Shown here: positions 18,658-46,619 of the stretch, piece by piece
Numbering within the stretch: position 1 is the stretch's first letter
Layout of the letters: each line of letters begins with the position of its first letter
Source: Gammaproteobacteria bacterium
GTDB lineage: Bacteria; Pseudomonadota; Gammaproteobacteria; Ga0077536
NCBI GenBank assembly: GCA_021773835.1
Contig: JAJFJQ010000062.1
Coordinates: 207,322 to 271,321 of the forward strand
Direction of reading: 5' to 3'
Length of the DNA: 64,000 nt
Position numbers and translations under genes: made by a program
Notes under the pieces: model-generated
What the model was told of the DNA's origin: nothing
What the model saw: only the letters and a program-made list of their open reading frames with translations
The model's database searches: none

Positions 18658-18687
18658 TCTAATTGGCGTCTGTTTCTAACGGCAATC

Positions 18688-29364: not shown

Positions 29365-29429
29365 ATAACGCATTGATTTAATTGGTGGGCGATACTGGGT
29401 TCGAACCAGTGACCCCTGCCGTGTGAAGG
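29365..29429. repeat. Partial duplicate of the tRNA-Val 3' half plus ~10 bp flank. Left att-like boundary of the island.
   Basis: ~65 bp with 2 mismatches relative to 46526-46590 (taacgcattgatttaattggtgggcgatactgggttcgaaccagtgacccctgccgtgtgaagg). Confidence 0.8.
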
Positions 29430-29693: not shown

Positions 29694-29975
29694 GTGATCA
29701 AGTCGTTCAAATGCCGGCAGACTGAGCGAATTTTCCGCGGAAACTTCTCTCGAAAATTTCCACGGGACATTCAGCGTATCGCGGCACGGAAACTTGAAAT
29801 GCTGGAAGCAGCTACCGTTTTGGGTTCGTTACGGATCCCTCCTTCCAACCGCCTTGAGAAGTTGAAAGGTGATCGCTCTGCCCAGCACAGCATTCGAATT
29901 AACGATCAATGGCGGATCTGTTTCGTTTGGAAACGCGGGGATGCGTTCAATGTAGAAATCGTGGATTACCACTAG
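29694..29975 (+). CDS. higB: HigB toxin (RelE/ParE superfamily mRNA interferase)
   Basis: 93 aa with KSFKC...RIFRGNFSRKFPRDIQRIAARKLEMLEAA...LKGDRSAQHSIRINDQWRICFVW...VEIVDYH. Confidence 0.85.
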   Translation: MIKSFKCRQTERIFRGNFSRKFPRDIQRIAARKLEMLEAATVLGSLRIPPSNRLEKLKGDRSAQHSIRINDQWRICFVWKRGDAFNVEIVDYH

Positions 29976-29986
29976 CGAGTAAACAA

Positions 29987-30286
29987 ATGACCAAGAGAGA
30001 ATTTGAACCCATCGCACCCGGCGAAATTCTGCTGGAAGAGTTTCTTCGTCCGATGGGGATCACCCAGTACCGATTAGCGAAGGACATCAGTGTTCCACAA
30101 AGGCGGGTCAGTGAGATCGTGCAAGGCAAACGCGGGATCACTGCCGATACCGCGTTACGCTTTGGACGGTTCTTTTGTATGGAGCCGCAGTTCTGGCTGA
30201 ATCTACAGTCCCGATTTGACTTACTGCGCGCTGAAGCCCAATTAGAAGAGCGCTTGGACAAGGAAGTGACCCCGCATGCTGCCTGA
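29987..30286 (+). CDS. higA: HigA antitoxin (XRE-family HTH)
   Basis: Starts at MTKREFEPIAPGEIL 12 nt after the higB stop. HTH region YRLAKDISVPQRRVSEIVQGKRGIT. The tracked ORF begins upstream in the same frame. Confidence 0.8.
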   Translation: MTKREFEPIAPGEILLEEFLRPMGITQYRLAKDISVPQRRVSEIVQGKRGITADTALRFGRFFCMEPQFWLNLQSRFDLLRAEAQLEERLDKEVTPHAA

Positions 30287-30533: not shown

Positions 30534-31076
30534 TCAGCGCATCTGTCTTTCTTGCTCACGCGTCGGCTCATGCGAAACTTCCGCTCGATTGTCCGCGTAT
30601 CTATCCTGGCAGTGCGGCACGGATGGCATCACTAGGCGTTTGGCTGACGCGTAATTGCGAAGCTTATCGGTTGTGATCTCAATTGGAACGTTAAATGGTG
30701 AGCGCATCGCCTTCCGAAAGAAGCGCTTAGCCGCTTTCGTATCTTTGTGACTTTGCACGAGGATCTCGATCAAATCGCCGTCCTGGTCCACGGCCCGTCA
30801 AAGGTAACGACGCTTTCCTTGAACTGAAACGACGACTTCGTCGAGAAACCAGCGGTCGCCGCGAGGCCCTTGATGTTTTCTAATTCGACGAACGTAATCG
30901 GGTCCAAAGGTGAGACACCGCTGGCGAATGGTTTCGTCCGAAACCGAAACACCTCGCTTCGCTAACAGGTCTTCGACATCACGGGAGCTCAATGTGAAGC
31001 GATGATAAAGCCATACTGCCGGCGCGATGATTTCGGGTGGGAATCGGTATCCGCGGTAATCAGGAGAATTCGTCAT
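30534..31076 (-). pseudogene. IS6-family transposase remnant (frameshifted and C-terminally truncated)
   Basis: Two adjacent ORFs in different frames match the N-terminal part (FPPEIIAPAVWLYHRF...DEVVVSVQGKRRYL) and the middle part (DQDGDLIEILVQSHKDTKAAKRFFRKA...PIEITTDKLRNYASA) of IS26-like transposases. Confidence 0.65.
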
Positions 31077-31133: not shown

Positions 31134-32042
31134 TTAGATCTGCTTAATCAACTCGGAACTCAGCAGCAACCGATCGAGGCGCCGTTCCAGTTCCGGCGTA
31201 GCCGGTACCATTGGCAGTCGATGCTCGTTACTTCTGATCAAACCCATCTTTTTCATCATGTACTTGATCGGGATCGGATTAGTGTCCCAGAACACCGCCT
31301 GGTTCAAGTCATACAACTCGAAGTGCAGTGCGCGCCCAGTACTGAGATCCAGACGTTGCATCGCATCACACAGCGCAATAATCTTGTCTACCGCCACGTT
31401 GCCGACAGCGTTCATTACGCCTACGGCGCCAAGCGCGAGCATCGGGAAGCTCAAGGACTCAAGTCCGACAAATATGCGGAACGAACTGCCGAAGGCGAGC
31501 AGGCAATCGCTGACGAAATCGAGATCATTTACCGCGTGTTTGATCCCGACCAGGGTTGGTACACGGGTCGCGATCTGTTCTACCGTTGCAACATCGACCG
31601 ATACTGCAGCACGCCCGGGGATGTGGTAGATCAATAGCGGTCGATCGCTGCGCTCGCCGACCGCAGCGAAATAATCAACCAGCCCTCGACGCGGTGGACG
31701 GATATAGTATGGCGTCACCACGAGTATGGCATCCGCGCCACATTCGGTAGCGTGCTCGGTCAGTTGAAACGTCTCGACGAGTGACTGCGAACCGGTTGCG
31801 GCAACGACCTGGCAGCGACCGGCAGCGACGCGCACAGCCGTACTGACCAGTTCATTGCGTTCGGCAACCGTCAGTGAGCTTGGTTCGGCAGATGTTCCAT
31901 TGACGACAATTCCGTGGCCACCTTGCTCGACTTGCAGTTCGACTAGCTGCTGGAAGCTCTCAAGGTCAACCCGACCATCGTGGAACGGGGTAACGATGGG
32001 CGTGAATGAACCGCGCAATGAGTCGTCAGTAAGTGTCAGCAT
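31134..32042 (-). CDS. DapA-family (dihydrodipicolinate synthase / N-acetylneuraminate lyase superfamily) lyase/aldolase
   Basis: 302 aa with PIVTPFHDGRVD...NGTSAEPSSLT. Confidence 0.8.
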   Translation of the reverse strand: MLTLTDDSLRGSFTPIVTPFHDGRVDLESFQQLVELQVEQGGHGIVVNGTSAEPSSLTVAERNELVSTAVRVAAGRCQVVAATGSQSLVETFQLTEHATECGADAILVVTPYYIRPPRRGLVDYFAAVGERSDRPLLIYHIPGRAAVSVDVATVEQIATRVPTLVGIKHAVNDLDFVSDCLLAFGSSFRIFVGLESLSFPMLALGAVGVMNAVGNVAVDKIIALCDAMQRLDLSTGRALHFELYDLNQAVFWDTNPIPIKYMMKKMGLIRSNEHRLPMVPATPELERRLDRLLLSSELIKQI

Positions 32043-32195
32043 AAAAGTTGCCGCCCGGGCTCGTGAATATACTTAGTATGCTAAGTATATTCACGAGATC
32101 GACCGATAGCAAGCTAAGGTGAGCAGGGCCGATATCGCGCATACGGTCGTGGCCGGGATCTGCGCGGGGAATGAGTTCGCGGGTACACTATCGTC

Positions 32196-32744
32196 ATGAG
32201 CAGGCGCAGCAGAGGCAATTCCGGGGAAACGACCGAGTCGAAGTCCGCTACGACAGTCGAGTTCTCGCTCGATCAGAGCATGGGGGCGCTCGTCCGCTTT
32301 ACTCACCGCGCTTTCCTCGAGGACCTGCAGTCACACCTCGCTACGCATGACGTAAACGCGGGCATGTGGTTCTTTCTGCGGACGCTTTGGGAAGAAGACG
32401 GCATCACCCAGCGGGAGCTGAGCCGGCGGATAGGTATCTCGGAACCAACTGCGCTGCATCAGTTGCGCAAGATGGAAAGCGCGAAGCTGCTCGAGCGCCG
32501 ACGATCGAAAACGGATCGTCGTAAATTTGACGTCGTGTTGACCGCCAAGGGCCGCAGGCTGAAACAGAAACTACTGCCGTACGCGGTCGATCTCAATGCG
32601 GACGCACTGATGGGGATTCCGAAAAGCGATGTCCAGATCGCGCGGCGCGTGCTTGCCGATATTCGCGATAACCTCAGCAAACGGCGCCAGGAACGCGATG
32701 TCGCCATCCGTAAAAAGGCTGGCCCGGGGGCTAGCAAGGACTGA
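32196..32744 (+). CDS. MarR-family transcriptional regulator
   Basis: RELSRRIGISEPTALHQLRKMESAKLLERRRSKTDRRKFDVVLTAKG. Confidence 0.75.
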   Translation: MSRRSRGNSGETTESKSATTVEFSLDQSMGALVRFTHRAFLEDLQSHLATHDVNAGMWFFLRTLWEEDGITQRELSRRIGISEPTALHQLRKMESAKLLERRRSKTDRRKFDVVLTAKGRRLKQKLLPYAVDLNADALMGIPKSDVQIARRVLADIRDNLSKRRQERDVAIRKKAGPGASKD

Positions 32745-32796
32745 ATTGCGGACTCGCACCAGGCTCACGAACCTAGCGGGCCACGGCCGCCCGGAC

Positions 32797-33090
32797 CTAC
32801 TCTTCGATAGCGGCCAGACGCCAGTTTCTAAAAACCGGTTCGTCGGCCGGCACGATCTCAGTCCGCAGCAATGCGTAACATCCAGGGCAGAAGGCCTGTC
32901 GTAGAACAATTTCGCGTTTTGTGTAATGACTCGGATCGGCATGGACACCGGGTCCGGCGTCAGCGGCCGGGCGCACCCGTTGCAGCGCGCCTGATAATGG
33001 ATCGGTTCGCGCATTCCCAATCGTCGCTGAGCAATGCCGACACTGCACGACCCCGGCACTGTCAACTGTGAGATTGTCATCGATGTTCAT
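32797..33090 (-). CDS. Small Cys-rich subunit resembling the acetone carboxylase gamma subunit
   Basis: ~97 aa from the internal Met MNIDDNL. Two Cys pairs (CRHC...CPGC). Positioned immediately after the hydantoinase B-type gene, as in acxABC. The family call is from memory. Confidence 0.45.
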   Translation of the reverse strand: MNIDDNLTVDSAGVVQCRHCSATIGNARTDPLSGALQRVRPAADAGPGVHADPSHYTKREIVLRQAFCPGCYALLRTEIVPADEPVFRNWRLAAIEE

Positions 33091-33109
33091 GCTGCTACTC
33101 CCGTCGGTT

Positions 33110-35086
33110 TTATCCGGCTTTGCGATCTCCGGCCCGCACTTCGCGTAATTGGTTGCGCCGCGTCTGGGTAGCCGCATCGTCCAGCGTGCCGTCGGCGTCA
33201 CAAACGACACCGTAAATCATGTCCGCGGCATGGGCAGAAACACGCTGCCGATGGATGTCGTGCACGACTTCGTGTGGGTCGCGCAGTAACGGATCGCCAT
33301 AGCCGCCGCCCCCCTGCCAATGGGTGTAGTACACGTCGCCCGGATCAAGGTCTGTTTCAGCATGTGAAGGCAGCTCATCATGTTGCCCGACAATATCCTG
33401 CAGATTGCGCGGGATCCGGCCCGCGGCGAACTGCTGGTGCACATCGGTGGCGCGCACCAGTACGTCGTAGCTGTTGTTTGCGGGATATCCGCCGCACAAA
33501 CCGTGGGCCAGCGGCAGCGCTTTCCCTGGCGAGGAAACGACCAGGTGCACGCGACCGGCGGGCGAGTCATGTGGAATAAAGCAGCTCGAAGCACCAAGTC
33601 CGCCACGAAAGCGCCCAGGACCACCAGAATCCACCTCCTCACGCCGCCAGAGGTAAAGCATCGGAAAACTGAATTCGTTGATTTCTACATCCGCGATGCG
33701 GCCCATCGGAATGCAACTCTGGCCTCCGGTATCAACTCCATCGCGATCTGTGCGGGCGCCGAGGCCGCCGGACATGGAGTCGCACAGCATGGTTACGAAT
33801 GGTCCGCCGCGCTGATCCACACCTGCCAGTACGGTCAGATCCCAAGTCCCTTCGCAAACCGACATTGCGCCACGGCAATGCTGCGGATGCGTGACCAGCA
33901 TACTGGCGATAGTTTCCGACACTGCATTTTGCGTCGCCCAGGCCGAAGCAACGGAGGCTTTGCCGACGCCCGCCGGGAAAGTGCAATTGTTGATCGTACC
34001 CTGCTCGCTGATGATATTCAGGCAACGGTATATGCCGCCGGGGACCCAGGGAATGTCGTTACACAGCATGGTCAATACGATCGGCATAATGCCGCCACGC
34101 AAACCGGCGAAGGTGCAGTTAATAAAGCCCTCGACCTGCTTGTCAGTACCGGTGAAGTCGAACGTAAGGCTGTCGCCCTGTTTACTCATCTGAAGCACGA
34201 TCTTGTAGATACCGTCATCCCCGGCGCGCGCGCCGTCCTGGTGGGCCACCGCCCCCCAGGTGCCGTTCGGCAGGCTGCTCAGTTTTGCGCGGAGACGCTT
34301 TTCAGCATCCGCCATCATGCGTTTCATGACCGCCTTGACCGTGTCGGGGCCATATTTCCCGATTAACTGGTCAAGACGCTCCTGTGCAACGTTATTGGCG
34401 CCAAGCTTGGCGCGCAGATCGAGCGCGATAAGCTTCGGGACACGGGAACGACGCAGGTACATGTCCTCGATGTCCGGACGTAGCTCTCCGCCCTCTATGA
34501 TCTTGACGGGCGGTACCGGCGTCGATTCCCAAAATACGTCGCGCCCGGATACCGACCAGCTGCCGGGCGATACGCCGCCAAGGTCAACCTGATGGCACAC
34601 CGCGCCGGTCCACGCGAACAGCTTACCGTCGTGGAACAGCGGTGCGAACAAGCTCACGTCGTTTTGATGCAGTCCGCCACCAACCCAGGGGTCGTTGCAC
34701 AAAAACATATCGCCGGGCTTGATCCCGGGGCGTTCGCAGCGGTGCTCCAGAGTCCACTTAATCGCCATGTCGAGCGATGCAGCGAGTTGCGTGTTGTAAA
34801 CCCCGACCAGCACGAGATCGCCGGTTTCGTCGGCAATCGCCGCGCTGAAGTCATTGCAGTCGGTAACCACAACGGAGCCGGACATGCGCTTCAGGGCGTC
34901 ACCCATATCTTCGGTGATGGCCGCGAGGCGGTGCCGGATGACTTCGAACGTCAACGGGTCGACCGCTTCAATGGCGCGTTCGTCAATTGTATGGATCGCC
35001 AGGTTCGACGCAGCGGCAAGCAGTTCCGCCGGACTGCGTTGGACGAAATTAAAGCGTTCGGAGCCGGAAACGTGGGTGATCGTCAT
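33110..35086 (-). CDS. Hydantoinase B / oxoprolinase-family subunit (acetone-carboxylase alpha-like)
   Basis: 658 aa with DPLTFEVIRHRLAAITEDMGDALKRMSGSVVVTDCNDFSAAI. A 4 nt overlap with the upstream hydantoinase A gene. Confidence 0.88.
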   Translation of the reverse strand: MTITHVSGSERFNFVQRSPAELLAAASNLAIHTIDERAIEAVDPLTFEVIRHRLAAITEDMGDALKRMSGSVVVTDCNDFSAAIADETGDLVLVGVYNTQLAASLDMAIKWTLEHRCERPGIKPGDMFLCNDPWVGGGLHQNDVSLFAPLFHDGKLFAWTGAVCHQVDLGGVSPGSWSVSGRDVFWESTPVPPVKIIEGGELRPDIEDMYLRRSRVPKLIALDLRAKLGANNVAQERLDQLIGKYGPDTVKAVMKRMMADAEKRLRAKLSSLPNGTWGAVAHQDGARAGDDGIYKIVLQMSKQGDSLTFDFTGTDKQVEGFINCTFAGLRGGIMPIVLTMLCNDIPWVPGGIYRCLNIISEQGTINNCTFPAGVGKASVASAWATQNAVSETIASMLVTHPQHCRGAMSVCEGTWDLTVLAGVDQRGGPFVTMLCDSMSGGLGARTDRDGVDTGGQSCIPMGRIADVEINEFSFPMLYLWRREEVDSGGPGRFRGGLGASSCFIPHDSPAGRVHLVVSSPGKALPLAHGLCGGYPANNSYDVLVRATDVHQQFAAGRIPRNLQDIVGQHDELPSHAETDLDPGDVYYTHWQGGGGYGDPLLRDPHEVVHDIHRQRVSAHAADMIYGVVCDADGTLDDAATQTRRNQLREVRAGDRKAG

Positions 35087-37212
35087 GCCAGTTTCTCCTT
35101 CTCGCTTCCGTTAACGGTCGCGACGTAAGTAATTCTGAGATTACCGAGTTCGTCGACCCGTGCATCGCAACCGAACGGTATGGCAACGGTGGTCGTCGGC
35201 GCCTCAACCACGGCTGGTCCTTTCAGGGTATCGCCCGGTCCGAGATCGAGATAATCGTAAATCGCAGTGCGTTCAAATCCACGCCGTATATCCAGGAATA
35301 CGTCGCGACTACCCCGAGCTTGCGCGCTTGCAGGCTTGCGTTCTGCGTGCGGCAATTCCGGCCGTATCGGCAGGCGGCCGCGGACCCGCATGCGATATGT
35401 GATCAACTGCATGCCCGCATCCCGATAGCCGGCATCCTTACCATACAGCTCCGCATACAGTGCTTCGAACGATTGTCCGATGGAGTCGACCTTCTCGGCG
35501 TCCAGTTCCCCGGCTGGAACCGGGGTCGTTACCTCGGCCAGCTGCATGGTGTAGCGAACGTCGACCTCGCGCTCGTAGGTCACGTCCGTAAAACTTAATC
35601 CCTGCTCGTCAAGGTAAGCGCTAAGTTCCCGCTCCAGGTCGCTGAAAATGTCCTGTAGCTGTTGCGGATCCGGTGGAAAATTTTCAGGTTGCGAGCGTTC
35701 GCGGGTCAGGACGATGTCTGAGCTGGCAAGACCGTACGCCGAGAACACAGCCGCAGTTGACCCGAGCGGAACCAGTACTTCGATGACGCCAAGATCGGCC
35801 GCATAGCTTGCGCAATGCATGGGGCCTGCGCCACCGAACGCATAGAGAACGAAATCGCGCGGATCGCGGCCGCTGTTTACAACCACCTTGCGTACCAAGT
35901 CAGCAGCCTGTGCATTCTGGATTGCGTAGATGGCTGCAGCCGCATCGCTAACGCTCATGCCGAGCGGGTCAGCGATATGTTTTTTGATCGATGCTTTCGC
36001 ACTCGCGACGGATAGTGGTTTTTTGCCGCCCAGGAAGTAATCCGGATTAATGATGCCGAGCACCAGGTCCGCGTCGGTCAATGTGGGGCGCTCACCGCCC
36101 TCGTCATAGCAAGCCGGACCAGGGTGCGCGCCGGCGCTATCCGGACCGACGCGCAGGTTGCCACCCTGGTCAAGCCACGCGATCGCGCCACCGCCAGCTC
36201 CAATGGTATGCACGTCGACCATGGAACTCGAAATCAGATACTGATTGATGACCACTGTATTGGTCGAGACAGGCTTGCCGTCCACCAACAAGCCAACCAG
36301 AAATGTTGTGCCGCCGATATCGGTCGAGATTACGTTGTCATGGTTAAGGATTCGGCCCAGATTCGCGCAACCGACGAGGCCGCCGGTAAGCACCGAACCA
36401 AGCGTTGTGACGGCATGACGAGGTGCCTCGCGAGCGCGAACGCAGCCGCCAGAACCTTGCATCACAAGTAGCGAGCCGTCAAAGCCACGCCCACGCAACT
36501 CGTCTTCCAGCGGGTACAAGTAGCCACGGAGGATAGGCGCGACCTGGGTATTAACTATCGTGGTGGCGCTGCGCGGAAATTCACGAATGCGCGGACTGAC
36601 ATCTGAAGATAGTGCGACGTAGAGGTCGGGCGCTATTTCACCAATAATGTCGCGGACTCGATGTTCGTGCGCCGGATTGCTGAACGACCAGAGAAAAGAC
36701 ACCGCTAGCGCTTCGACGCCTTTATCGATCAGCCGCCGGGTCGCCTGGCGAACGCCGCCCTCATCAAGACACACAATTTCCGCCCCTTTGTAGTCGATCC
36801 GCTCGTTGATTTCCTCGATCAATTGACGCGGCACCAGGGCTGGCGGTTTGCTGGTGTTGGCCATGTTCTGGATTTCTTCTGCATCCAGGCCAGCATAGCG
36901 TCCCTCAACATTCATAATCGAAATAGAATCGGCGTGCCCCTGAGTGGTCATGAATCCGACTTTGGACACATTGCCCGTGACCAGTGCGTTAAGCGTGGAA
37001 GTTGTACCGTGCACGATATAGTCCGTATTGCCGAGCAACTCTGGCGTGCTGATCCCGACTACTGCGGCCAGTTCGTCGACGACATTCAGGAACCCGAGCG
37101 AAAAATCGTGCGGTGTAGACGGTGATTTTGCTGCGAACAGGATGCCCGCTTCATCGGCCAGGAAACCATCCGTAAAGGTACCCCCGGTATCGATACCCAT
37201 AACATATGCCAT
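35083..37212 (-). CDS. Hydantoinase A / oxoprolinase-family subunit (acetone-carboxylase beta-like)
   Basis: 709 aa with the N-terminus MAYVMGIDTGGTFTDGF and ASKHA-fold ATP-binding motifs. Confidence 0.88.
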   Translation of the reverse strand: MAYVMGIDTGGTFTDGFLADEAGILFAAKSPSTPHDFSLGFLNVVDELAAVVGISTPELLGNTDYIVHGTTSTLNALVTGNVSKVGFMTTQGHADSISIMNVEGRYAGLDAEEIQNMANTSKPPALVPRQLIEEINERIDYKGAEIVCLDEGGVRQATRRLIDKGVEALAVSFLWSFSNPAHEHRVRDIIGEIAPDLYVALSSDVSPRIREFPRSATTIVNTQVAPILRGYLYPLEDELRGRGFDGSLLVMQGSGGCVRAREAPRHAVTTLGSVLTGGLVGCANLGRILNHDNVISTDIGGTTFLVGLLVDGKPVSTNTVVINQYLISSSMVDVHTIGAGGGAIAWLDQGGNLRVGPDSAGAHPGPACYDEGGERPTLTDADLVLGIINPDYFLGGKKPLSVASAKASIKKHIADPLGMSVSDAAAAIYAIQNAQAADLVRKVVVNSGRDPRDFVLYAFGGAGPMHCASYAADLGVIEVLVPLGSTAAVFSAYGLASSDIVLTRERSQPENFPPDPQQLQDIFSDLERELSAYLDEQGLSFTDVTYEREVDVRYTMQLAEVTTPVPAGELDAEKVDSIGQSFEALYAELYGKDAGYRDAGMQLITYRMRVRGRLPIRPELPHAERKPASAQARGSRDVFLDIRRGFERTAIYDYLDLGPGDTLKGPAVVEAPTTTVAIPFGCDARVDELGNLRITYVATVNGSEKEKLA

Positions 37213-37288
37213 CGCAAATTCCTCTTATACCTTCTCGCGCCAGTGGGTGATCGGCTTATTTATCGATAGTGCGCCTTGTGCAATGCAA

Positions 37289-38776
37289 TCAATCGAGGCG
37301 CACATGAATGTTCTTGACTTGCGTGTAGGACAACAATTCTGACAACCCCTCTTCGCGGCCGAGCCCGGATTTCTTGTAGCCCCCGAACTCAGCGCCGATG
37401 AAATGGCTGGTCATATGGTTGATCCAGACGTAGCCCGATTCGATGCGGCTTGCGAGGCGGTGAGCGCGTTGCAGGTCGCGGGTCCAGATTGAGGCTGTTA
37501 GACCGTAATCGACCGAGTTAATTTGGGTCACCAGTTCGTCTTCGTCACTCCACGGAATTACCGACAGAACGGGACCAAATACTTCCTCGCGAAACAGCCG
37601 CATCGCGGGCGTGACATCAGCGAATACCGTCGGTTCGACGAACCAACCCTTTGATAAAGTCTGGTCCGCAGACGGCCTGCCGCCGCATAACAAGCGGGCG
37701 CCCTCTTCTTTGGCCCCCTCGATGAAGGCCATAACCTTGTTGAATTGAGGTTCCGAAATAAGGCTGCCCATCGTTGTGTTCATATTCGTGGGGTCACCGC
37801 ATCGGTGAAGCTTCGGTATCAGTTCCGTAATTCCGGCACAGACTTCATCGTAAACTGAGCTGTGCGCGAAACAGCGCGAGGTTGAGCCACAGGACTGCCC
37901 CGCCCAGGTGAAGTTCATACCACCGACTGCGCCGGTGACGGCGCGCTCTAGATCAGCATCCGGGCATATGACCAGAGGATTCTTACCTCCAAGTTCGAGT
38001 GTTACCGGAATGATCTTCTCGGCAGCGGCACGCAATATGTTGCTACCAGTCTGGACCGAACCGATGAGTGCTACTTTGCGCACCAATGGGTGGTCGACAA
38101 GTGCCGCGCCGCATTCGCTGCCACCGGTGACGATGTTCACCACGCCTGGGGGCAACGTGTCGGCTATTATTTCGGCTAAGCGATACGAAGACAGCGGTGC
38201 CTGCGCTGGAGGTTTCATCACGACCGTGTTGCCGGCAGCGATTGCGGGCGCGAGCTTACCCGCGAGAAACATCAAGGGGTGGTTATAGGCCACGATGCGG
38301 GCAACGACGCCCAGCGGTTCGCGCAGCGAATAATTCAGCACGCCAGATCCCATGGGCAACGTGTCGCCTTTGAGTTCGTGGACCAGGCCGGCGTAGTAGT
38401 CGATTTGTGCTGCAGCGATGACCGCGTCCCTGGTCATCTCGCGCACCGGATTACCGCAGTTGATAGCATCGATTAAAGCGAATTCGTCGGCCGAAGCACG
38501 TATTTTCGCGGCTAGTTCACGCATAAAGGTGGCGCGCGCACCCGGTGCCGTATCCCGCCAGGTTGCGAACGCCGTGTGCGCAGCCTGCACGGCACGATCG
38601 ACGTCCGTGGCGTTAGCAACGGCGCAGTTACCGAGTTCGTCCTGGTTGGCCGGGTTAACGGTTGCTGCATATCCACCATCCGGCCGGTGCCAGGCGTTCC
38701 CGAAAAAAAGATCGCGAGTGCGGGGTAAAACGCCGTACTTTTCCGACGGATTGATGATGGCTCGATTTTCAGTCAT
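37289..38776 (-). CDS. NAD(P)-dependent aldehyde dehydrogenase
   Basis: 495 aa with LELGGKNP and a catalytic Cys region. Confidence 0.9.
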   Translation of the reverse strand: MTENRAIINPSEKYGVLPRTRDLFFGNAWHRPDGGYAATVNPANQDELGNCAVANATDVDRAVQAAHTAFATWRDTAPGARATFMRELAAKIRASADEFALIDAINCGNPVREMTRDAVIAAAQIDYYAGLVHELKGDTLPMGSGVLNYSLREPLGVVARIVAYNHPLMFLAGKLAPAIAAGNTVVMKPPAQAPLSSYRLAEIIADTLPPGVVNIVTGGSECGAALVDHPLVRKVALIGSVQTGSNILRAAAEKIIPVTLELGGKNPLVICPDADLERAVTGAVGGMNFTWAGQSCGSTSRCFAHSSVYDEVCAGITELIPKLHRCGDPTNMNTTMGSLISEPQFNKVMAFIEGAKEEGARLLCGGRPSADQTLSKGWFVEPTVFADVTPAMRLFREEVFGPVLSVIPWSDEDELVTQINSVDYGLTASIWTRDLQRAHRLASRIESGYVWINHMTSHFIGAEFGGYKKSGLGREEGLSELLSYTQVKNIHVRLD

Positions 38777-38836
38777 GTGCCTGCCCTGTACAGAGGTGTT
38801 GCAACAATCGGGAACGCTGGTTACTGCGCGCGTGGA

Positions 38837-39643
38837 TCAGAGAAAAGTCAGACCACCGTCCACTGTTAAGGACTGCCCGGTCATAAACGCGCTGGCGTCG
38901 CTCGACAAGAACAGAATGGTGCCGACCAGGTCATCCGGCGCTTGCGGGCGCGATACACAACGCATCGCGATCATCGCGTCGCGCTGCTGCGGTGTGACGG
39001 TTTCGCGCTCGATTTCCGTTTCTACGGCGCCCGGCAGGATCGTATTGACGGTGATTCCATGTGGGCCAAGTTCGCGCGCGAGACTGCGCGACATTCCAAC
39101 CAGGGATGACTTCGAGGTTGTGTAGTGGAGATAGTTACCGCGGCCCATGGTGACTGAGGCGGAACCCATGTTGACGATGCGACCATAGTTCTGGTCAACC
39201 ATCACCGGAGCGGCGGCTCGCGCCATCAGGAATGGTCCGGTAATGTTGACGCGTAGTACCTGGTCCCACTCGTCGAGTGGAATTTCAGTAAACGGGCGCA
39301 TCTTAATAGTCGAGAAAATTCCGGCATTGTTGATCAGGATGTCGAGGCGACCGAATGCCGCTACAGCTGCAGTAACTGCAGCGTTCGCCGAATCGGCCTG
39401 TGCGACATCGGTTTGGCAGGCCAGGGCTTCGCCGCCCGCAGCGCGGATAGCCGTAGCTACTCGCTCCCCGCTTTCAGCATTACGCTCCGCGATGACAACC
39501 GCGGCGCCGGCATCGGCGAATGCGTGCGCGAAAACCTGTCCGATGCCTTGACCGCCGCCGGTAACCATGGCGACGCGCCCGGCCAGATCGATTTGATTAC
39601 TCACTGCATAGTCTCCCATTGTTTGCTCGTCCCTCGCGACCAC
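38837..39643 (-). CDS. Short-chain dehydrogenase/reductase
   Basis: VTGGGQGIG motif and YTTSKSS catalytic Tyr/Lys. The true start may be the internal MGDYAV. Confidence 0.88.
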   Translation of the reverse strand: MVARDEQTMGDYAVSNQIDLAGRVAMVTGGGQGIGQVFAHAFADAGAAVVIAERNAESGERVATAIRAAGGEALACQTDVAQADSANAAVTAAVAAFGRLDILINNAGIFSTIKMRPFTEIPLDEWDQVLRVNITGPFLMARAAAPVMVDQNYGRIVNMGSASVTMGRGNYLHYTTSKSSLVGMSRSLARELGPHGITVNTILPGAVETEIERETVTPQQRDAMIAMRCVSRPQAPDDLVGTILFLSSDASAFMTGQSLTVDGGLTFL

Positions 39644-39931
39644 TGGCGTCGGGTTGATAACTCCGCAGCGTCAGTGGACCGGGCGAAAATGACGAGAATA
39701 TCCTGCAGCCGAACCGCCCTAAGGTGCCAGCGTTAACGCTCACGGGTTTGATACAGCCTAGCGCAAAATACTTAGTAAGCAAAGTATTTATTCAGAGCGA
39801 GTTCAGACTGACGCGGACGATGCGCATTACTTGAAAGAAGTGGTCGCCGAGCGCAGGAAAGTGGTTTCCGGCTGCGCAATCAGCGGCATCCTAGCAGGGG
39901 CAACAGCGGTGAAGATGAACTTAGGCGAGCC

Positions 39932-40549
39932 CTAGTTGCTACCTGGCCGCTTCATCTCGAAGGTTTCACCGAGACGGGCGTAAGTGGCGCCACCCATCCG
40001 CATTATCGGCGCTGCTTCCACGGTGTCGAAACGGTCATCCTCGGTCAGAAGGACGTCTTGGACATGAACTGCGACCACGCGTCCGACAACCAACGCGGAA
40101 TGGCGTTCACCGGGCTGACTGGGTGGTAGATCGACGATACGGACGACTCTGCATTCTAGATTGGCGGCCGCCGCTTTGACGCGCGGAACCCCGACTGTGA
40201 CGCCTGGAGCGCACTCGAGACCTGCAAGTTCAAACTCGCTGACACCGGGCGCCGCAGTAGCAGAGGTGACATTCACAGCTTCGCGTAGGGCGTAGGAAGC
40301 AAAATTGGCGACAAATTCAGGTACCACTCTCACGTTGGCGAGCGTGTCCTTTTCTTCCCGGTCTGCGGCACCGTTGACGGAGAATGCGACCATTGGAGGT
40401 GAGGTCGAGATCGCGTTGAAGTAGGAAAACGGTGCAAGGTTTGGTCCGCCAAGCGCATTGACCGTACTAATCCAGCCGATTGGTCGCGGCGCAACAATCG
40501 CGTTCACAATCGATGGACGAAAATGCTCGTCGGTGCTTTTCATGAACAT
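39932..40549 (-). CDS. Flavin reductase (HpaC/NADH:FMN oxidoreductase-like domain)
   Basis: 205 aa with IVAPRPIGWISTVNALGGPNLAPFSYFNAISTSPPMVAFSV. Confidence 0.85.
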   Translation of the reverse strand: MFMKSTDEHFRPSIVNAIVAPRPIGWISTVNALGGPNLAPFSYFNAISTSPPMVAFSVNGAADREEKDTLANVRVVPEFVANFASYALREAVNVTSATAAPGVSEFELAGLECAPGVTVGVPRVKAAAANLECRVVRIVDLPPSQPGERHSALVVGRVVAVHVQDVLLTEDDRFDTVEAAPIMRMGGATYARLGETFEMKRPGSN

Positions 40550-40666
40550 GGCAGTTCCCTTGGCTGGCCTCAGACTTTAGTCCGGGTGAACGAGCAGGCC
40601 CGTTCTTCCGTAGCTATACAATTGACGAGAGTATGCTAAATTACTTAGCAAGCAAAGCATTATGCC

Positions 40667-41242
40667 TTGGCATCGATGACGACTAATCAGGACGTTCCGC
40701 GAATTCCTTTCGAGGATTTGCGTGAAGATATTGCCGATTCTCTCCGCGCCAAGTTCGAGCGCCTGGGTTACCTCGGTGAATTCTTCTCCGCAACGGCGCA
40801 CCAGCCTGACGCGCTGATGGCGTTCATACTTTTTACAGACGCAGCGAAGGCTGAACTCGATCTAAAATCGGTCGAATTGATCGCACTGACGGTTGCGACC
40901 ATGAAGGCCGTAGCCTACGAAAAGAATCAGCACGAACGCCTTAGCGTCAAGTCCGGTTTCGGACGTAAATGGGTGGCCGCCGTAGAAGCACTCGCACCTG
41001 AACGGCATGACACACTTAGCGAGAGCGAAAAGCGCATGCAGCGTTTCGTGATCGAAGCCGTACGTGCAGATGGCAAAAATATTACGCTATGGCGGCGCGC
41101 GCTCTGCGATGACCTTGGCCACGTCAAGACCATTGCCGTGATGATGGTTATGGCGCGTTATACGAGCCACGCCTTATTGGTCAACGCCCTAGACATTGGT
41201 GCTCCGGTACCTTCCATATTTGACAATACTGAAGGTGGCTGA
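40667..41242 (+). CDS. Carboxymuconolactone decarboxylase/AhpD-like family protein
   Basis: All-helical ~190 aa protein with a CxxxxH-like element (ALCDDLGH). The assignment is tentative. Confidence 0.45.
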   Translation: MASMTTNQDVPRIPFEDLREDIADSLRAKFERLGYLGEFFSATAHQPDALMAFILFTDAAKAELDLKSVELIALTVATMKAVAYEKNQHERLSVKSGFGRKWVAAVEALAPERHDTLSESEKRMQRFVIEAVRADGKNITLWRRALCDDLGHVKTIAVMMVMARYTSHALLVNALDIGAPVPSIFDNTEGG

Positions 41243-41269
41243 CGGTCAAAGCCACGAGGGAAATCCGAT

Positions 41270-42391
41270 ATGAACAACGCTGAACCAGTTATCGCGGATG
41301 AGAGCGGGAAACCGCTTGGGACTGTCACGCCCGACGCTGCGCGCCCGGGCGAGGATTGGCCACCATTGACAATCCGGCGCGCTGTCATCGAACGGGAGAT
41401 TGAGCGTCTGTGCGATATTTCAGTGCCCGAAAACGGTCGGCGTCAGGTGCAGTTTATCCACCCATCGGCTAATCCAGCAACACCCGGGCTCAATCCGGGA
41501 GTGCGTGTGATGTTGGAGGTGTTGCTGCCAGGTGAGCAAACCGCGCTCGGCCGGCACAATTCGACACAGGTCAATTTTTGTATTCGCGGGGCCGGTACGA
41601 CCGTGGTCGGCGCACGGCAGGTCCATTTCTCGCAATACGACGTGTGGAACATACCTTCTTACTCGCCTTACAGACATGTCAACGATTCCAAAGACGTGCA
41701 GGTTAGGCTGACCTATTCGAACGCGCCGCTATTGGAGATGTTACGGGTCCATTTGGTCGAAGAGAATCCATTGCCCGGCGCGAGTCTCGAATTGGCAGCG
41801 GCATCCACACCAAGTGCGAATAACCGTGGTCAGAGCCCATTCGGCACCTTCGCGATCGGTGACGATGGTGCACACCTGATGCCGTACGAGACGCTGATCA
41901 GTCCGTCACAGGTCGATTCACGCGCATTGCACTGGCCGTGGGCGGTGGTACAGGAAAAACTCGACCAACTGGCCGGGCTAGGCAGCGAGTACACTGGCCG
42001 GCGCCTGTATCTCATGTATAACCCGATGACCGGCCGCTCCAACGGCACCACGCCCAACTTTTTCGCAACCATTACGATCAGACCACCGAAGATTATCGAC
42101 CGGCCGCATCGCCACGTGTCTTCGGCAATCAACTATTATTTTCGGGGAAGCGGCTACAGCGTAGTCGAAGGTCAGCGTTACGAGTGGGAGGCTGGCGACC
42201 TGATGGTGTCTGCGCCGGGCTGGGCCGTGCATAACCATGCCTCGTATGACGAACCGGTTTACGAGCTGACGGTGCAGGATCAACCACTGCACATCATGAT
42301 GGAATCGCTGTTGTGGCAGGAAAGTATGAAGGAGCCCGCCGCGATTCTGGGCTCGGCGGTGGGTTTTGCGACCAACCGCGCAGCAGGCTGA
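41270..42391 (+). CDS. Bicupin protein, gentisate 1,2-dioxygenase-like
   Basis: 373 aa with two cupin modules (LLPGEQTALGRHNSTQ... and RPHRHVSSAINYYFRGSGYSVVEGQ). Confidence 0.55.
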   Translation: MNNAEPVIADESGKPLGTVTPDAARPGEDWPPLTIRRAVIEREIERLCDISVPENGRRQVQFIHPSANPATPGLNPGVRVMLEVLLPGEQTALGRHNSTQVNFCIRGAGTTVVGARQVHFSQYDVWNIPSYSPYRHVNDSKDVQVRLTYSNAPLLEMLRVHLVEENPLPGASLELAAASTPSANNRGQSPFGTFAIGDDGAHLMPYETLISPSQVDSRALHWPWAVVQEKLDQLAGLGSEYTGRRLYLMYNPMTGRSNGTTPNFFATITIRPPKIIDRPHRHVSSAINYYFRGSGYSVVEGQRYEWEAGDLMVSAPGWAVHNHASYDEPVYELTVQDQPLHIMMESLLWQESMKEPAAILGSAVGFATNRAAG

Positions 42392-42779: not shown

Positions 42780-43445
42780 ATGTTGCCGATCGAATGCAGA
42801 GAAGCTCGCGCGAAGCTGGTGGGGCTTGCTGACGAGTTGGCGCAGCAGTTTCTCGACGAACTCGCGGCGAGTATCAAAAAGGGTGTCATCAAAACGACAC
42901 CGTTTGCCTATCTACGTGGATTGGTTAAATGTGCACGCGTCGGCACGTATGCCCCGGAGGGTGCGCTGACGATAGCGCGTCAACGACAATGTAAGGCCGC
43001 GGTCGACCTGGCATTAACGCGCGTAGTGCCGCTGGTACCGCTTATCCGATTGAGCCGGTCGACCCAGACAGCGCGTTGGTCAAGAGATTGCTCAACATCC
43101 GACAGCGCTCGGGTAGGTCAAACCACACAACGAATTAGTGACGTCGCCGACCTGTACGGCGGACGCTCGTGCGTGCGTATGTACGAAAAACGGCGATATC
43201 CGCAAGGCAATAGGAACGCACGGTTTAGAGCGAATTTATTGGATCGCATCGGCCACAACAAGACGTTGCGAGTATTAGTTAAAGTCAATAGGTTGGTGCC
43301 CTGGGCTCCAATTGAGCAAAAAGTAACCACCTGTCGAATATCGACACTTAACCGTGGATCGACGATTTTTTATTCCGATGGCGTATTTGGTAGTGACGGC
43401 TTAGTCGGTATTCGTTGGACCAGAGAGAAAATAACAAATCGTTAG
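42780..43445 (+). CDS. Hypothetical island protein (no recognisable family)
   Basis: 221 aa tracked ORF. Only the N-terminal ~90 aa look protein-like (ARAKLVGLADELAQQFLDELAASIKKG...). Confidence 0.3.
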   Translation: MLPIECREARAKLVGLADELAQQFLDELAASIKKGVIKTTPFAYLRGLVKCARVGTYAPEGALTIARQRQCKAAVDLALTRVVPLVPLIRLSRSTQTARWSRDCSTSDSARVGQTTQRISDVADLYGGRSCVRMYEKRRYPQGNRNARFRANLLDRIGHNKTLRVLVKVNRLVPWAPIEQKVTTCRISTLNRGSTIFYSDGVFGSDGLVGIRWTREKITNR

Positions 43446-44306
43446 ACGGACATCTTAAAGTCAATAGGTTGATGCCGCCGGCATCAAGATAGTGACTCTA
43501 GAATTCGTAGATGGGAGGAGTACCCGCCGGCGCGCCGGGCCCACGAGCATTGGCCTAGGGCCAATGCAACGTGTTTGTGTCTACGACACGCTGCAGTCGC
43601 CGACGTTGAGCGAAGGTCCGCGTCACTACACAAGCGAAGCGCAGTAGTGACGCGGACGAAATCGGTGCCTTGGGCCTTGCCCGCTGGGCCGATTCCTGAA
43701 CTGTGCACGAATGCCCCGCGAATTACGGTGGGAACCCCGCACGTCGGTGACTTGATTTATCCGGATGCCAGCTTCGCGCCCGTCTAGACTCATCCGGCGT
43801 GAACGATTTTATCCGTGGCCACTACGGCAAAGTGGCAACCAAGGCATCGTCGGACCGTGTAACCGATGCATCGGCGCAAGCCGCGGTCCATCTTCAAGCA
43901 AATGACAAACCAATCGGAGCGTCCATCCTCGCCGGCAGTTGCCAGCGATTCAATCATCGAGCGTCCGTTTAGCGAATGTTGCTTAGTGCTCATTTTTTTT
44001 AATGCAGTTAGCCGCTGCAATCTTAAAAGGAGGTGTTTAACCATTGTCGAAACTCACCCGGAAACGGGATCGTTGGATTGCGCGAGAACTTCTTCAACAG
44101 AGGAAAGCTCGCGTTGCCTGTAACCAGGCGCTTTTAGGTTGACTGGGACTGGTGCCCCATGACTGCTCCGCTGTAGCGGTCTTGCCAGCTTCGGCTGTCA
44201 GGAAAGTCGGAAACACTTACCGAAAATCGGAAGCACTGTGAGAAGCCTGAACTACCAACTGAAAATGCTGTGTCGGCATTCCCGCGAAGGGAGTTATGCG
44301 ACGCAG

Positions 44307-45101
44307 ATGAATCGCGAACGCATGCTGACTTTGATCGCGAATGAATTGCACGAGCTCGGATATCGCAAGATGAGCGAGCGTTCCTTGAAACCGAAACATA
44401 TCGATGCGTTAGTGAAGCATTGGTTTGATCAGCGCTTGTCGATCGGAACCATTAAGAACCGCATGGCCGTGATCCGCTGGTGGGCGCACAAGGCCGATAA
44501 GCAGAATGTCGTTGCACGTAGCAACGATCACTATGGGATCTCGGATCGACGATTCATTGCCGATGAATCGAAGGCTAAGTCGGTTACCGAATCGCAATTG
44601 GAAAAGATCGTAGATGCGCACGTCCGCATGAGCCTCGAACTTCAGCAAGCTTTCGGATTGCGTCGAGAAGAGGCGATGAAGATTCAACCGAGCTTCGCCG
44701 ACCGCGGTGACCACATCGTTCTGAAACCAAGTTGGACGAAAGGCGGTAAGGATCGTGCGATCCCGATCCGGACAGAAGCGCAGCGAGACGTGCTCGATCG
44801 TGCGCGGCAACTCGCCGGTCTTGGCTCGTTAATACCGAGCAATCGAAATTATGTCCAGCAGATGCGGATCTACGAGCGCGACACCGTGCGCGCTGGTCTG
44901 TCGAATATGCATGGACTACGGCACGCCTACGCACAGAATCGATACGAAGAATTAACTGGTTGGAAATGCCCCGCGGCCGGCGGCCCGGCAAAGGCATCGC
45001 TGATGTTTGAGCAACGGGTAGTCGATAGAGAGATGCGGCTAACGATCAGCCGTGAATTGGGCCATGAGCGCGAGCAAATCACGGCAGCCTATTGCGGGTA
45101 G
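44307..45101 (+). CDS. Tyrosine recombinase-family protein (second recombinase of the island)
   Basis: C-terminal HGLRHAYAQNRY...GHEREQITAAY motif (His-x-x-Arg ... Tyr). Start chosen at MNRERML with AAGGGAG upstream. The tracked ORF begins at 44238. Confidence 0.6.
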   Translation: MNRERMLTLIANELHELGYRKMSERSLKPKHIDALVKHWFDQRLSIGTIKNRMAVIRWWAHKADKQNVVARSNDHYGISDRRFIADESKAKSVTESQLEKIVDAHVRMSLELQQAFGLRREEAMKIQPSFADRGDHIVLKPSWTKGGKDRAIPIRTEAQRDVLDRARQLAGLGSLIPSNRNYVQQMRIYERDTVRAGLSNMHGLRHAYAQNRYEELTGWKCPAAGGPAKASLMFEQRVVDREMRLTISRELGHEREQITAAYCG

Positions 45102-45227: not shown

Positions 45228-45644
45228 ATGGCCGAAACCATACTGTTAACGATACCTGAAGTCGCAGAACATTTACGCGTCTCAGCCCGGACTGTTCACC
45301 GGCTTATCGCTGCGAAATCGTTACCGGTTTGCAAGGTTGGTCGCTCTGTTCGAATCAGAAGAGTCGACCTCGAGCGTTTTCTGGACCCCGAATCCACGAC
45401 GCCTGATAATAAGACCTGCACGGGGCCGGGTGTGCGTAACCGAGAGGAAAACGTATGCCATACCGTCGCAAAGACAGTACCGTTTGGTGGGCGTCTTACG
45501 TCGATGCAAGCGGACAAAGAGTTAGACGAACTACTGGAACAACGGACCATAAGGAGGCAAAAGCGCTCGAAGCCAAATGGAAGCTTGAAGCGTTCCGAAC
45601 AGGGCAGTGGGGCGAAGAGCCGAGCCGAACGTTCGCGGAGTTGA
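45228..45644 (+). CDS. AlpA-family (MerR-like HTH) excisionase/regulator
   Basis: MAETILLTIPEVAEHLRVSARTVHRLIAAKSLPVCKVGRSVRIRRVDLERFL. The tracked ORF runs on to 45644 and overlaps the integrase start out of frame, so the functional end is uncertain. Confidence 0.6.
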   Translation: MAETILLTIPEVAEHLRVSARTVHRLIAAKSLPVCKVGRSVRIRRVDLERFLDPESTTPDNKTCTGPGVRNREENVCHTVAKTVPFGGRLTSMQADKELDELLEQRTIRRQKRSKPNGSLKRSEQGSGAKSRAERSRS

Positions 45645-46543
45645 TGGTGCCTTATCTAAAGGCGACAGCAACTAAGAAACGCAGTCATGAACGCGATCGA
45701 TACCTAGTCGCGAGATTGCGCGAATTTTTCGGTGAGCATGATCTTCGGTCTTTAAGTCCCCGAGACGTTCGAGCCTATATTGAGCATCGCCAAAGCAAGC
45801 ACGTAGGGCCGGCGACTATAAATCGGGAACTGGGCCTCTTATCCGCGGCACTCAATTGGGCAAAGCGGGACCTGGAGTGGCAGTTACCGAACCCAATAAT
45901 GGGTCGTCTGCTGCAGCCGCCGGAAGGACGGCTACGTTGGCTAAGTCGGCAGGAAGCAGACCGATTGATCGCGGCGGCGCGTAAGCAAAGCCGAGCGAAA
46001 TATTTGGTCGACTTTCTTGAACTGGCTTTGCACACGGGCATGCGCCGGGGCGAGATGCTCAACCTGGAGTGGCAGCGGGTCGATCTTGATGAGGGGCTGG
46101 TCTACTTACGCGGGGCGAATCAGAAGAACGGCAAGTTTGGGAGCGTGCCATTGAACGCAACCGCGAAAGCCGCTTTGGTACGTCGCGATGCGTTCAGACG
46201 GGAAAACTGTCCCTCGTCGTCCTGGGTGTTCGCGCACAAGGACGGCGAACGCGTTGCATCTGTGAAATGCTCGTTCGCAACTGCGTGCGCCACGGCCGGG
46301 ATCGAGGATTTTCGGATCCACGATTTACGCCATTGTTGTGCCGCGTGGCTGGTGCAGGCGGGTGTTTCAATCCGGGCTGTCGCCGAGCTGCTGAGGCACT
46401 CGGATATCCGCGTCACGATGCGCTACGCCCATTTGGCACCGGAAACTGTGCGCGCCGCGGTCTCAGTCTTGGATGCTGAGTCACGATTTGGTCACGGTGC
46501 AGACTTGGATAAACGCGAAAAGGAGGTTAACGCGTTGATTTAA
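45455..46543 (+). CDS. int: Site-specific tyrosine integrase (phage/P4-like)
   Basis: 362 aa with an arm-binding-like N-terminus and HDLRHCCAAWLVQAGVSIRAVAELLRHSDIRVTMRYAHL catalytic box. Its stop lies 1 nt before the tRNA-Val 3' end. Confidence 0.9.
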   Translation: MPYRRKDSTVWWASYVDASGQRVRRTTGTTDHKEAKALEAKWKLEAFRTGQWGEEPSRTFAELMVPYLKATATKKRSHERDRYLVARLREFFGEHDLRSLSPRDVRAYIEHRQSKHVGPATINRELGLLSAALNWAKRDLEWQLPNPIMGRLLQPPEGRLRWLSRQEADRLIAAARKQSRAKYLVDFLELALHTGMRRGEMLNLEWQRVDLDEGLVYLRGANQKNGKFGSVPLNATAKAALVRRDAFRRENCPSSSWVFAHKDGERVASVKCSFATACATAGIEDFRIHDLRHCCAAWLVQAGVSIRAVAELLRHSDIRVTMRYAHLAPETVRAAVSVLDAESRFGHGADLDKREKEVNALI

Positions 46544-46544
46544 T

Positions 46545-46619
46545 TGGTGGGCGATACTGGGATCGAACCAGTGACCCCTGCCGTGTGAAGGCAGTGCTCT
46601 CCCGCTGAGCTAATCGCCC
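46545..46619 (-). tRNA. tRNA-Val (anticodon CAC)
   Basis: The reverse complement GGGCGATTAGCTCAGCGGGAGAGCACTGCCTTCACACGGCAGGGGTCACTGGTTCGATCCCAGTATCGCCCACCA folds as a cloverleaf, with CCA encoded. Confidence 0.85.

Follow-up and report, generated by a model that had tools for sequence, protein, structure and literature searches.

The question raised by this stretch of DNA, a 64-kb window on contig JAJFJQ010000062.1 of an uncultured gammaproteobacterium, is whether the ten catabolic and regulatory genes packed between positions 31134 and 42391 work as one unit, and on what kind of compound such a unit would act. On balance, this cargo is probably a single regulon under a MarR-family protein, put together from two evolutionarily separable modules and carried on an island at a tRNA-Val gene. 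Module A, which consists of a CMD-like protein, a bicupin, a DapA-like protein, a flavin reductase, and the MarR regulator, is tightly linked in many unrelated contigs, while a second recurrent unit, module B, is made up of a short-chain dehydrogenase/reductase (SDR), an aldehyde dehydrogenase (ALDH), the HyuA- and HyuB-type subunits of a further enzyme, and its small subunit.

The genes were called from the listing of open reading frames (ORFs) together with Pfam and NCBIfam scans of the window, which returned, in the same positions, every gene that a first-pass annotation of this DNA had listed. Module A is represented by a class I aldolase-like gene of the DapA/DHDPS family (31134-32042, minus strand; PF00701, E 2.8e-68), the MarR gene divergent from it (32196-32744, plus strand; PF01047, E 1.1e-11), a Flavin_Reduct-family flavin mononucleotide (FMN) protein (39932-40549, minus strand; PF01613, E 8.5e-24), a probable, divergent CMD/AhpD-superfamily protein without CxxC (40667-41242, plus strand; PF02627, E 4.7e-4), and a bicupin recognised by Pfam, NCBIfam, and alignment, with a gentisate-dioxygenase-type HRH...H motif in its C-terminal cupin (41270-42391, plus strand). 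Module B lies wholly on the minus strand, and comprises the SDR (38837-39643; adh_short, E 3e-58), the NAD(P)-dependent ALDH (37289-38776; PF00171, E 1e-156), the HyuA-type ATP-binding subunit (35083-37212; three Hydantoinase_A domains), the HyuB-type subunit (33110-35086; Hydantoinase_B, PF02538, E 2e-125), and a zinc-ribbon small subunit of 97 aa with four Cys (32797-33090), identified by a profile match and by its position after HyuB in relatives. This last ORF, 19 bp after HyuB, had been overlooked.

The gaps between these genes are as short as first described (a 4-bp overlap, and spacings of 19, 76, 60, and 27 bp), but the cargo is less uniformly oriented than that description had it, given that the MarR, CMD-like, and bicupin genes are on the plus strand. 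The presence of these three genes on the plus strand implies at least four transcription units in the cluster, and the SDR and flavin reductase genes are separated by 288 bp. None of the ten cargo ORFs is disrupted or truncated, and identity to their orthologues is 52-85%; for the MarR protein, it is 52-57% with its counterparts in related bicupin loci.

Evidence for a common control comes from a perfect palindrome between the starts of the DapA-like and MarR genes (operator 1, 32069-32088, 0 mismatches, with 17-nt perfect arms at 32060-32097), the core of which, ATACTTAG-N4-CTAAGTAT, was taken from this site alone and searched through the window with up to 3 mismatches. Three sites were found against the 0.03 expected from shuffled sequences, one in each promoter region of the cluster, the others being operator 2 (39768-39787, 1 mismatch), upstream of the SDR-ALDH-HyuA-HyuB-small-subunit unit, and operator 3 (40641-40660, 3 mismatches), located where the flavin reductase and CMD-like genes diverge. 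A -10-like hexamer overlaps operator 1, although the scan for promoters and terminators found no more sites than in shuffled sequence and was given no weight beyond this one hexamer.

At the sequence level, then, a MarR gene stands together with palindromes in the promoters of the units it is predicted to regulate, and the MarR of the cluster would be the obvious binder of the three predicted operators. The cargo is probably a co-regulated gene set, and the co-regulation on which the first-pass annotation had made its reading depend is borne out as far as sequence can do so, with one motif in all three promoter regions. About 15 related loci, numbered here with an L (L089-L095, L098, L106/7, L114, L117/9, L135/6), also keep the motif ahead of their bicupin operon; it is almost absent from the rest of the 2.47 Mb of related loci, and extends its coverage to module B both in the window and in L089. 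In L098, a further copy, at position 13522, lies shortly before the gene for an ACAD-like flavin monooxygenase, and the regulon in some lineages may include an oxygenase of this kind.

How often module A recurs was measured in 84 metagenomic loci with a bicupin (L088-L171), through tblastn searches to which thresholds were applied, clustering of ORFs having been set aside because of the antisense shadow ORFs in GC-rich contigs. The commonest neighbours of the bicupin in these soil, marine, and freshwater metagenomes are an OCD/mu-crystallin gene directly upstream (38 of the 84 loci) and a pair of Rieske alpha/beta subunits (36 loci, 34 of them within 3 kb). A MarR gene is near the bicupin in 18 loci (15 within 3 kb), a flavin-reductase orthologue in 17 (all within 3 kb, 13 of them on the same strand and 43-94 bp downstream), a DapA-like orthologue of 55-65% identity also in 17 (16 of them 7-190 bp downstream), and the CMD-like gene, directly upstream, in 15. 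In L109, the module lies amid a VanA-like oxygenase, an alpha/beta hydrolase, a dienelactone hydrolase, and a TonB receptor.

Module B was followed through the neighbourhoods of HyuA homologues, the contig scan with HyuA having found at least five close relatives. Its five genes are linked in the metagenome-assembled genome L002 and in Pseudarthrobacter, Amycolatopsis, and Klenkia, with a HyuA identity of 65-72%; the ALDH and SDR genes are linked to HyuAB in L002-L008, L088, L089, and L172, and the module as a separate unit is seen in L002, L005-L008, and L172. In two species of Amycolatopsis, module B and a class II aldolase lie beside a gentisate 1,2-dioxygenase (GDO), a FAH hydrolase, a mycothiol-dependent maleylpyruvate isomerase (MDMPI), and a flavoprotein of the 3-hydroxybenzoate-6-hydroxylase type (3HB6H).

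Fusion of the two modules is seen in four related loci (L003/L004, L088, and L089), where the genes follow at least three different orders, and all four of these loci also carry the Rieske alpha/beta pair and a protein of 350-360 aa. This protein is encoded between the ALDH and HyuA genes (7192-8274 in L003, 5970-7031 in L089), has no Pfam or NCBIfam match, and is 76% identical between L003 and L089. A 349-aa ORF of L090, likewise without a Pfam match and situated downstream of the flavin reductase (11949-12998), gave no tblastn match to it.

More distant HyuAB genes keep other company, such as a GMC oxidoreductase with a sugar-type ABC transporter, LigB/TauD with an amidohydrolase, or LIV-type transporters, and the HyuAB enzyme family is not bound to one pathway. 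In L086, a related locus from a metagenome-assembled genome, a trio of molybdopterin oxidoreductase, 4Fe-4S, and NrfD genes is present just downstream of HyuAB (14985-19155), and a similar trio is found near the gltX gene of the window (49302-53592).

The whole catabolic block is carried by a 17.2-kb island inserted at the tRNA-Val gene, and its boundaries are marked by a 64-nt direct repeat of 97% identity. The left copy (29366-29429) repeats the 3' half of the tRNA plus 17 nt, and the right copy (46528-46591) is the 3' half of tRNA-Val(cac) itself (46545-46619) plus 17 nt, so composing a right boundary (46528-46619, minus strand) from which synteny with the loci L174 and L175 starts. A tyrosine integrase (45455-46543, plus strand; PF00589, E 4e-35) abuts the tRNA gene, its end being 2 bp away, and is preceded by an integrase-like protein (44238-45101, plus strand; Phage_int_SAM_2/Integrase_1 in Pfam).

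In L174 and L175, the closest relatives (GltX 89% identity), synteny runs rightwards from tRNA-Val and ends exactly there, and both copies of the repeat match at their single tRNA-Val. To the left of this gene, the relatives hold AAA_25, an MT-A70 methyltransferase, an autotransporter, and an Ldi-like gene (L174, 1-9000; L175, 1-2100), all unrelated to the island. Integrase beside a tRNA gene, direct repeats at the borders, and absence from close relatives are the marks of a tRNA-integrated island, and all of them are seen here; the tRNA-Val gene is an integration hot spot, and the 17.2 kb are a strain-specific insertion. The GltX homologues place the host among uncultured Gammaproteobacteria only; no match to an 11.5-kb block was obtained by megablast against plasmids and E. 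coli genomes, and an exact-sequence look-up returned all six proteins tested (GltX, pyruvate carboxylase, an EF-G-like protein, HyuA, the bicupin, and the DapA-like protein) as singletons.

At the left end of the island, a HigB toxin (29694-29975; PF05015, E 6.4e-18) and an overlapping HTH antitoxin (29909-30286; HTH_3) form a pair on the plus strand (29694-30286), the plasmid matches of which carry HigA and RelE/ParE annotation, and which is probably a stabilising module. Beside the DapA-like gene lies a frameshifted and truncated IS6-family-like transposase remnant (30534-31076, minus strand), present as two consecutive ORFs in different frames, which has only faint DDE_Tnp_IS240 and HTH_Tnp matches, the IS6 label being our own reading of the sequence. 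An independent Logan assembly of the same island (L001) breaks within this remnant, at window position 30563. The island also holds an ORF of 221 aa (42780-43445, plus strand) with no Pfam match and no counterpart in related loci.

Such a mosaic, with its toxin-antitoxin pair, transposase remnant, two integrase genes, and unknown ORFs, could suggest that unrelated genes were simply gathered on a mobile element, and modules A and B are indeed usually apart. Against this, the same families are linked in dozens of independent contigs, the fusion of the two modules occurs in more than one arrangement, and the operator is common to every promoter region of the cluster, so that an incidental juxtaposition is very unlikely and already largely refuted. 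The comparison of HyuAB neighbourhoods that had been proposed as a check thus returned two recurrent modules, joined in four loci, in place of a chance assembly.

What the island lacks is the oxygenase. No two-component monooxygenase was found in the window by Pfam and related scans, tblastn with the Rieske subunits of L003 gave nothing in the window below E = 0.1, and the 350-360-aa protein of the fused relatives left no trace there by tblastn. The first-pass annotation had noted the absence of a monooxygenase partner for the flavin reductase and called it unusual; the absence stands, whereas its unusual character does not, as it is normal for the reductase orthologues of bicupin loci. In the 17 loci with such an orthologue, the Rieske pair accompanies it in all 13 that are long enough to judge, and an ACAD-like oxygenase was found by the tblastn screen in just one (L098); a different ACAD-fold gene is present in L090 and its near-duplicate L091, according to precomputed Pfam annotation only. 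The missing monooxygenase is no longer puzzling, since reductases of this family are normally found in the company of the bicupin and a Rieske oxygenase; what is truly odd about the island is that it has no Rieske oxygenase.

One explanation for this absence is decay, in which the Rieske pair and the 360-aa protein were lost, perhaps via IS6, and the cargo is a non-functional hitch-hiker on the island. Both are present in all four fused relatives and neither in the window, the transposase remnant adjoins the DapA-like gene, and the gene order of the window is unlike that of any relative. On the other hand, ten cargo ORFs remain full-length, three copies of the operator have been kept, and many bicupin loci also have no Rieske pair within 10 kb, which indicates that the module can exist without one nearby. 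A decaying remnant is considered unlikely; on the reading preferred here, the island may rely on a chromosomal hydroxylase, act on an already dihydroxylated substrate, or be a reduced version of the system.

The company that the reductase keeps also bears on its role. It shares a bicupin locus with an OCD gene only once among the 84 loci, and this near mutual exclusion of OCD and flavin reductase favours a substrate-reducing role for the latter, while its constant association with the Rieske pair leaves the role of electron donor open. The best PDB match of the protein is 3bpk (1.5e-29), which is annotated as NTA-monooxygenase component B, and the NbaA nitroreductase 4z85 matches as well (5e-21). 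NbaA, the 2-nitrobenzoate reductase, offers a parallel, as a Flavin_Reduct fold that reduces its substrate directly in a benzoate pathway with no oxygenase partner, although the similarity is moderate, the best match is still the monooxygenase component, and no nitroaromatic genes are evident here. A literature search for a trigonelline-type system, in which a flavin reductase is paired with a Rieske oxygenase, found nothing.

The suggestion, also made in the first-pass annotation, that the reductase serves the HyuAB enzyme by supplying reduced flavin or electrons has only co-location to recommend it, in the window, L003/L004, and L088. The reductase follows the bicupin in about 15 loci from which HyuAB is absent, Actinobacteria have HyuAB but not the reductase, module B lacks it in L002, L005-L008, L089, and L172, and known Hyu-type enzymes require ATP and a divalent metal, not flavin (PMC8453981). 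This already disfavoured proposal is thus regarded as highly improbable.

The HyuAB enzyme itself has the subunit make-up of acetone and acetophenone carboxylases, namely a HyuA-type, a HyuB-type, and a small zinc-ribbon subunit. HyuB is directly followed by the small subunit in all close relatives as well as several distant ones; C17, C20, C68, and C71 of this subunit are invariant, and its profile matches the beta subunit of acetophenone carboxylase (5l9w_C, E 2.5e-9) and the gamma subunit of acetone carboxylase (5m45_C, E 8e-4). The best PDB match of HyuA is the gamma subunit of acetophenone carboxylase (3.6e-117), and the best solved relatives of HyuB are caprolactamase CapB (6yra_B) and the delta subunit of the same carboxylase. 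The motifs DTGGTFTD, DxGGT, and GAxPGP are invariant in domain A1 of HyuA, and are the ATP motifs tabulated for Hyu-type enzymes (PMC8453981).

With the equivalog models, the scores fall below the cut-offs both for the carboxylase (ApcC 437 bits, cut-off 1500; ApcD 228 bits, cut-off 1500) and for the caprolactamase (CapA 526 bits, cut-off 1000; CapB 233 bits, cut-off 1000), CapA being the highest-scoring model for HyuA, and HyuB reaching no NCBIfam equivalog cut-off. In Aromatoleum aromaticum, acetophenone carboxylase (Apc) has an upstream 1-phenylethanol dehydrogenase, and the SDR in the island operon fits the same logic of alcohol to ketone to carboxylation. The island enzyme shares with Apc and acetone carboxylase (Acx) the HyuA-type ATP subunit, the HyuB-type metal subunit, and the four-Cys subunit, a homologue of Apc beta and Acx gamma. 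It differs from Apc in having one HyuA-type subunit in place of two, no epsilon subunit, and no CoA ligase or thiolase, and from both carboxylases in the strict linkage of an ALDH and in scores far under the equivalog cut-offs; the carboxylase role is putative. The acetovanillone carboxylase AcvCDE was considered as a parallel to module B and rejected, as the paper on it shows it to be biotin-dependent and not Hyu-type.

The main rival to a carboxylase is the lactam reading, in which HyuAB and the small subunit would open a cyclic amide, as an ATP-dependent lactamase or hydantoinase, within a pathway for N-heterocycles or lactams. The DapA-like and OCD proteins would then act on cyclic imine or amino-keto-acid intermediates, ALDH and SDR would finish the carbon chain, and the substrate of the bicupin and Rieske pair would be an aromatic that contains N, for instance an aminobenzoate or oxindole derivative. 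For this speak the caprolactamase alpha model at the top of the HyuA scores, CapB as the best solved relative of HyuB, and the OCD family (imine reductases and cyclodeaminases) as the commonest neighbour of the bicupin. Two relatives, L085 and L087, have LIV-type ABC transporters, an amidohydrolase, an M20 peptidase, and an aminotransferase as neighbours, the best NCBIfam matches of the bicupin and the Rieske pair are 5-aminosalicylate dioxygenase and anthranilate dioxygenase, and there is a precedent in IaaCE, a Hyu-type hydrolase proposed to open the lactam ring of 2-oxoindoleacetate (PMC8453981).

Nonetheless, the island enzyme always comes with the zinc-ribbon third subunit, which among solved structures was found only in acetone and acetophenone carboxylase entries and is not described for hydrolases in the caprolactamase paper, where the enzyme has two subunits, CapA and CapB (PMC8453981). 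The island has no aminotransferase, deaminase, amidase, or other nitrogen-handling gene, and the Amycolatopsis copies of module B adjoin canonical gentisate genes. Taken together, the lactam pathway is rather improbable, though it is the alternative that deserves the most attention, and carboxylation remains the preferred role for the Hyu-type enzyme.

The bicupin, in turn, carries the three-His Fe(II) motif (HRH ... H) expected of a gentisate-type dioxygenase, but in its C-terminal cupin, which aligns with the N-terminal catalytic cupin (HRH...WHAHH) of the canonical GDO from Amycolatopsis; H280, H282, H321, and H323 are invariant across 15 homologues. It scores only 64.3 bits with the gentisate 1,2-dioxygenase model TIGR02272 (cut-off 442.1), and its best NCBIfam match, MabB (5-aminosalicylate dioxygenase), reaches 88 bits against a cut-off of 650. 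No matching cluster emerged from a literature search on 5-aminosalicylate pathways. For the Rieske pair of the relatives, the closest models are AndAc (417 bits) and AndAd (131 bits), both matches being below cut-off.

The CMD-like protein falls short of the gathering score of PF02627 (20.5 bits against 23), while all 16 of its orthologues match this family at E <= 0.01 (best 9.7e-8) and its profile has a weak match in the PDB, with E 0.12, to an AhpD-core protein; judged by these profiles, it is probably a CMD superfamily member. The catalytic CxxC of AhpD was not found in the CMD-like family, in which the aligned position reads Y-E-x-N-Q-H-E and no Cys is conserved. Neither this protein nor the ALDH and SDR could be assigned a specific function from searches of the PDB and NCBIfam.

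The DapA-like protein scores highest with TIGR02313, the HpaI-like DapA variant (296 bits, under the cut-off of 396.7), and passes the dapA model TIGR00674 (237.6 bits, cut-off 206.15). It keeps the Schiff-base Lys with its Tyr and Arg partners in alignment to E. coli DapA, in which these residues are K161, Y133, and R138. Membership of TIGR00674 is therefore clear from sequence, while the gene context argues for a catabolic role. With the homoprotocatechuate variant that TIGR02313 describes ('HpaI-NOT-DapA'), the island shares the best model of its aldolase and a linked ALDH that could oxidise a semialdehyde; it differs in that the score is under the cut-off, no other hpa genes are present, and the dioxygenase is a cupin and not an extradiol enzyme.

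Another frame of reference is given by the nag-type gentisate clusters, which encode the salicylate 5-hydroxylase NagGH, gentisate 1,2-dioxygenase, maleylpyruvate isomerase, and fumarylpyruvate hydrolase. The relatives of the island similarly pair Rieske alpha/beta subunits of the AndAc/NagG group with an HRH...H bicupin, there is a MarR-type regulator with a palindromic operator, and pyruvate is among the predicted end products. In contrast to these clusters, the bicupin of the island is far under the GDO model and has the cupin order swapped, no maleylpyruvate isomerase or FAH hydrolase is present, with CMD-like, DapA-like, and flavin-reductase genes (elsewhere OCD) instead, and no hydroxylase is found in the window.

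A route can be proposed for the regulon. The SDR and ALDH would oxidise an upstream precursor, and module B, as an ATP-dependent Hyu-type enzyme, would probably turn an alcohol or ketone precursor into an aromatic acid that enters module A; the step is probably a carboxylation, because of the three-subunit make-up, and would yield an ortho-substituted benzoate. In the relatives, the Rieske pair would hydroxylate this benzoate to a gentisate-like compound, and the bicupin, as an Fe(II) three-His dioxygenase, would open the ring of a para-diol or aminophenol benzoate. The product would then be reduced, by the FMN protein here and by the OCD-family NAD(P)H enzyme in other lineages, and the CMD-like protein may be an isomerase or decarboxylase, after which the DapA-like aldolase would release pyruvate and a semialdehyde, the latter to be oxidised by ALDH.

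The funnel from a ketone or aromatic compound to ring cleavage that the first-pass annotation had sketched is thus retained in part: the set is coherent, by its recurrent modules and its operator, and an aromatic, gentisate-type context is plausible because of the Rieske pair in relatives, the three-His motif of the bicupin, and the position of module B beside the gentisate genes of Amycolatopsis; the funnel as a complete pathway is not, as there is no hydroxylase. Module A would represent a widespread, uncharacterised gentisate-like ring-cleavage module. A bolder version holds that it is an undescribed variant of the gentisate pathway, in which the ring-cleavage product, rather than being hydrolysed, is reduced by a stand-alone Flavin_Reduct enzyme or an OCD-family one and then cleaved by the DapA-like enzyme to pyruvate and a semialdehyde, and that module B is the first aerobic, biotin-independent carboxylase of the Hyu type feeding in an aromatic ketone or phenol, and this stronger claim is put forward as a doubtful, speculative one.

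Several points weigh against the proposed regulon and its pathway. The funnel is incomplete within the island, because the hydroxylating oxygenase of all four fused relatives is absent here, and the pathway is not closable from the island alone. By the curated NCBIfam cut-offs, every cargo enzyme falls below all characterised equivalogs, dapA excepted, and the DapA-like gene could formally be a paralogue from lysine biosynthesis. Gentisate genes adjoin module B in one genus only, with none within 10 kb in Pseudarthrobacter and Klenkia, and the HyuAB relatives beside amino-acid-type ABC transporters, amidohydrolases, and sugar-type transporters fit a lactam or a polyol equally well. Finally, the operator consensus was refined post hoc, after the sites had been seen, which makes the search with the single site the sole independent test of the shared motif.

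Elsewhere in the window, a 165-nt unit is present three times in tandem (99% and 88% identity) at 53929-54423, 20 bp after a tRNA-Glu gene (53834-53909). The region that follows, from about 54240 to 58780, contains a cyclase-family gene, a TPR protein, and unknown ORFs, and has no counterpart in L174/L175, synteny with which returns at 58783; it may be a second strain-specific insertion, beside tRNA-Glu. Near the start of the window, an ORF of 1769 aa (126-5435) has no Pfam match.

MarR-controlled catabolic islands are ordinary in themselves, and the interest of this one resides above all in the widespread and uncharacterised module A, none of whose enzymes reaches a functionally specific curated cut-off, the DapA-like protein alone passing one, that of the generic dapA model. 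The alternation of two unrelated reductase families beside the same dioxygenase is a concrete hint to its chemistry, and the linkage of a three-subunit Hyu-type enzyme to ring-cleavage genes points to a substrate range that is unexplored in aerobes for the relatives of these carboxylases. The conserved operator, together with its MarR protein, would offer a direct route to the inducer and hence to the substrate of the pathway.

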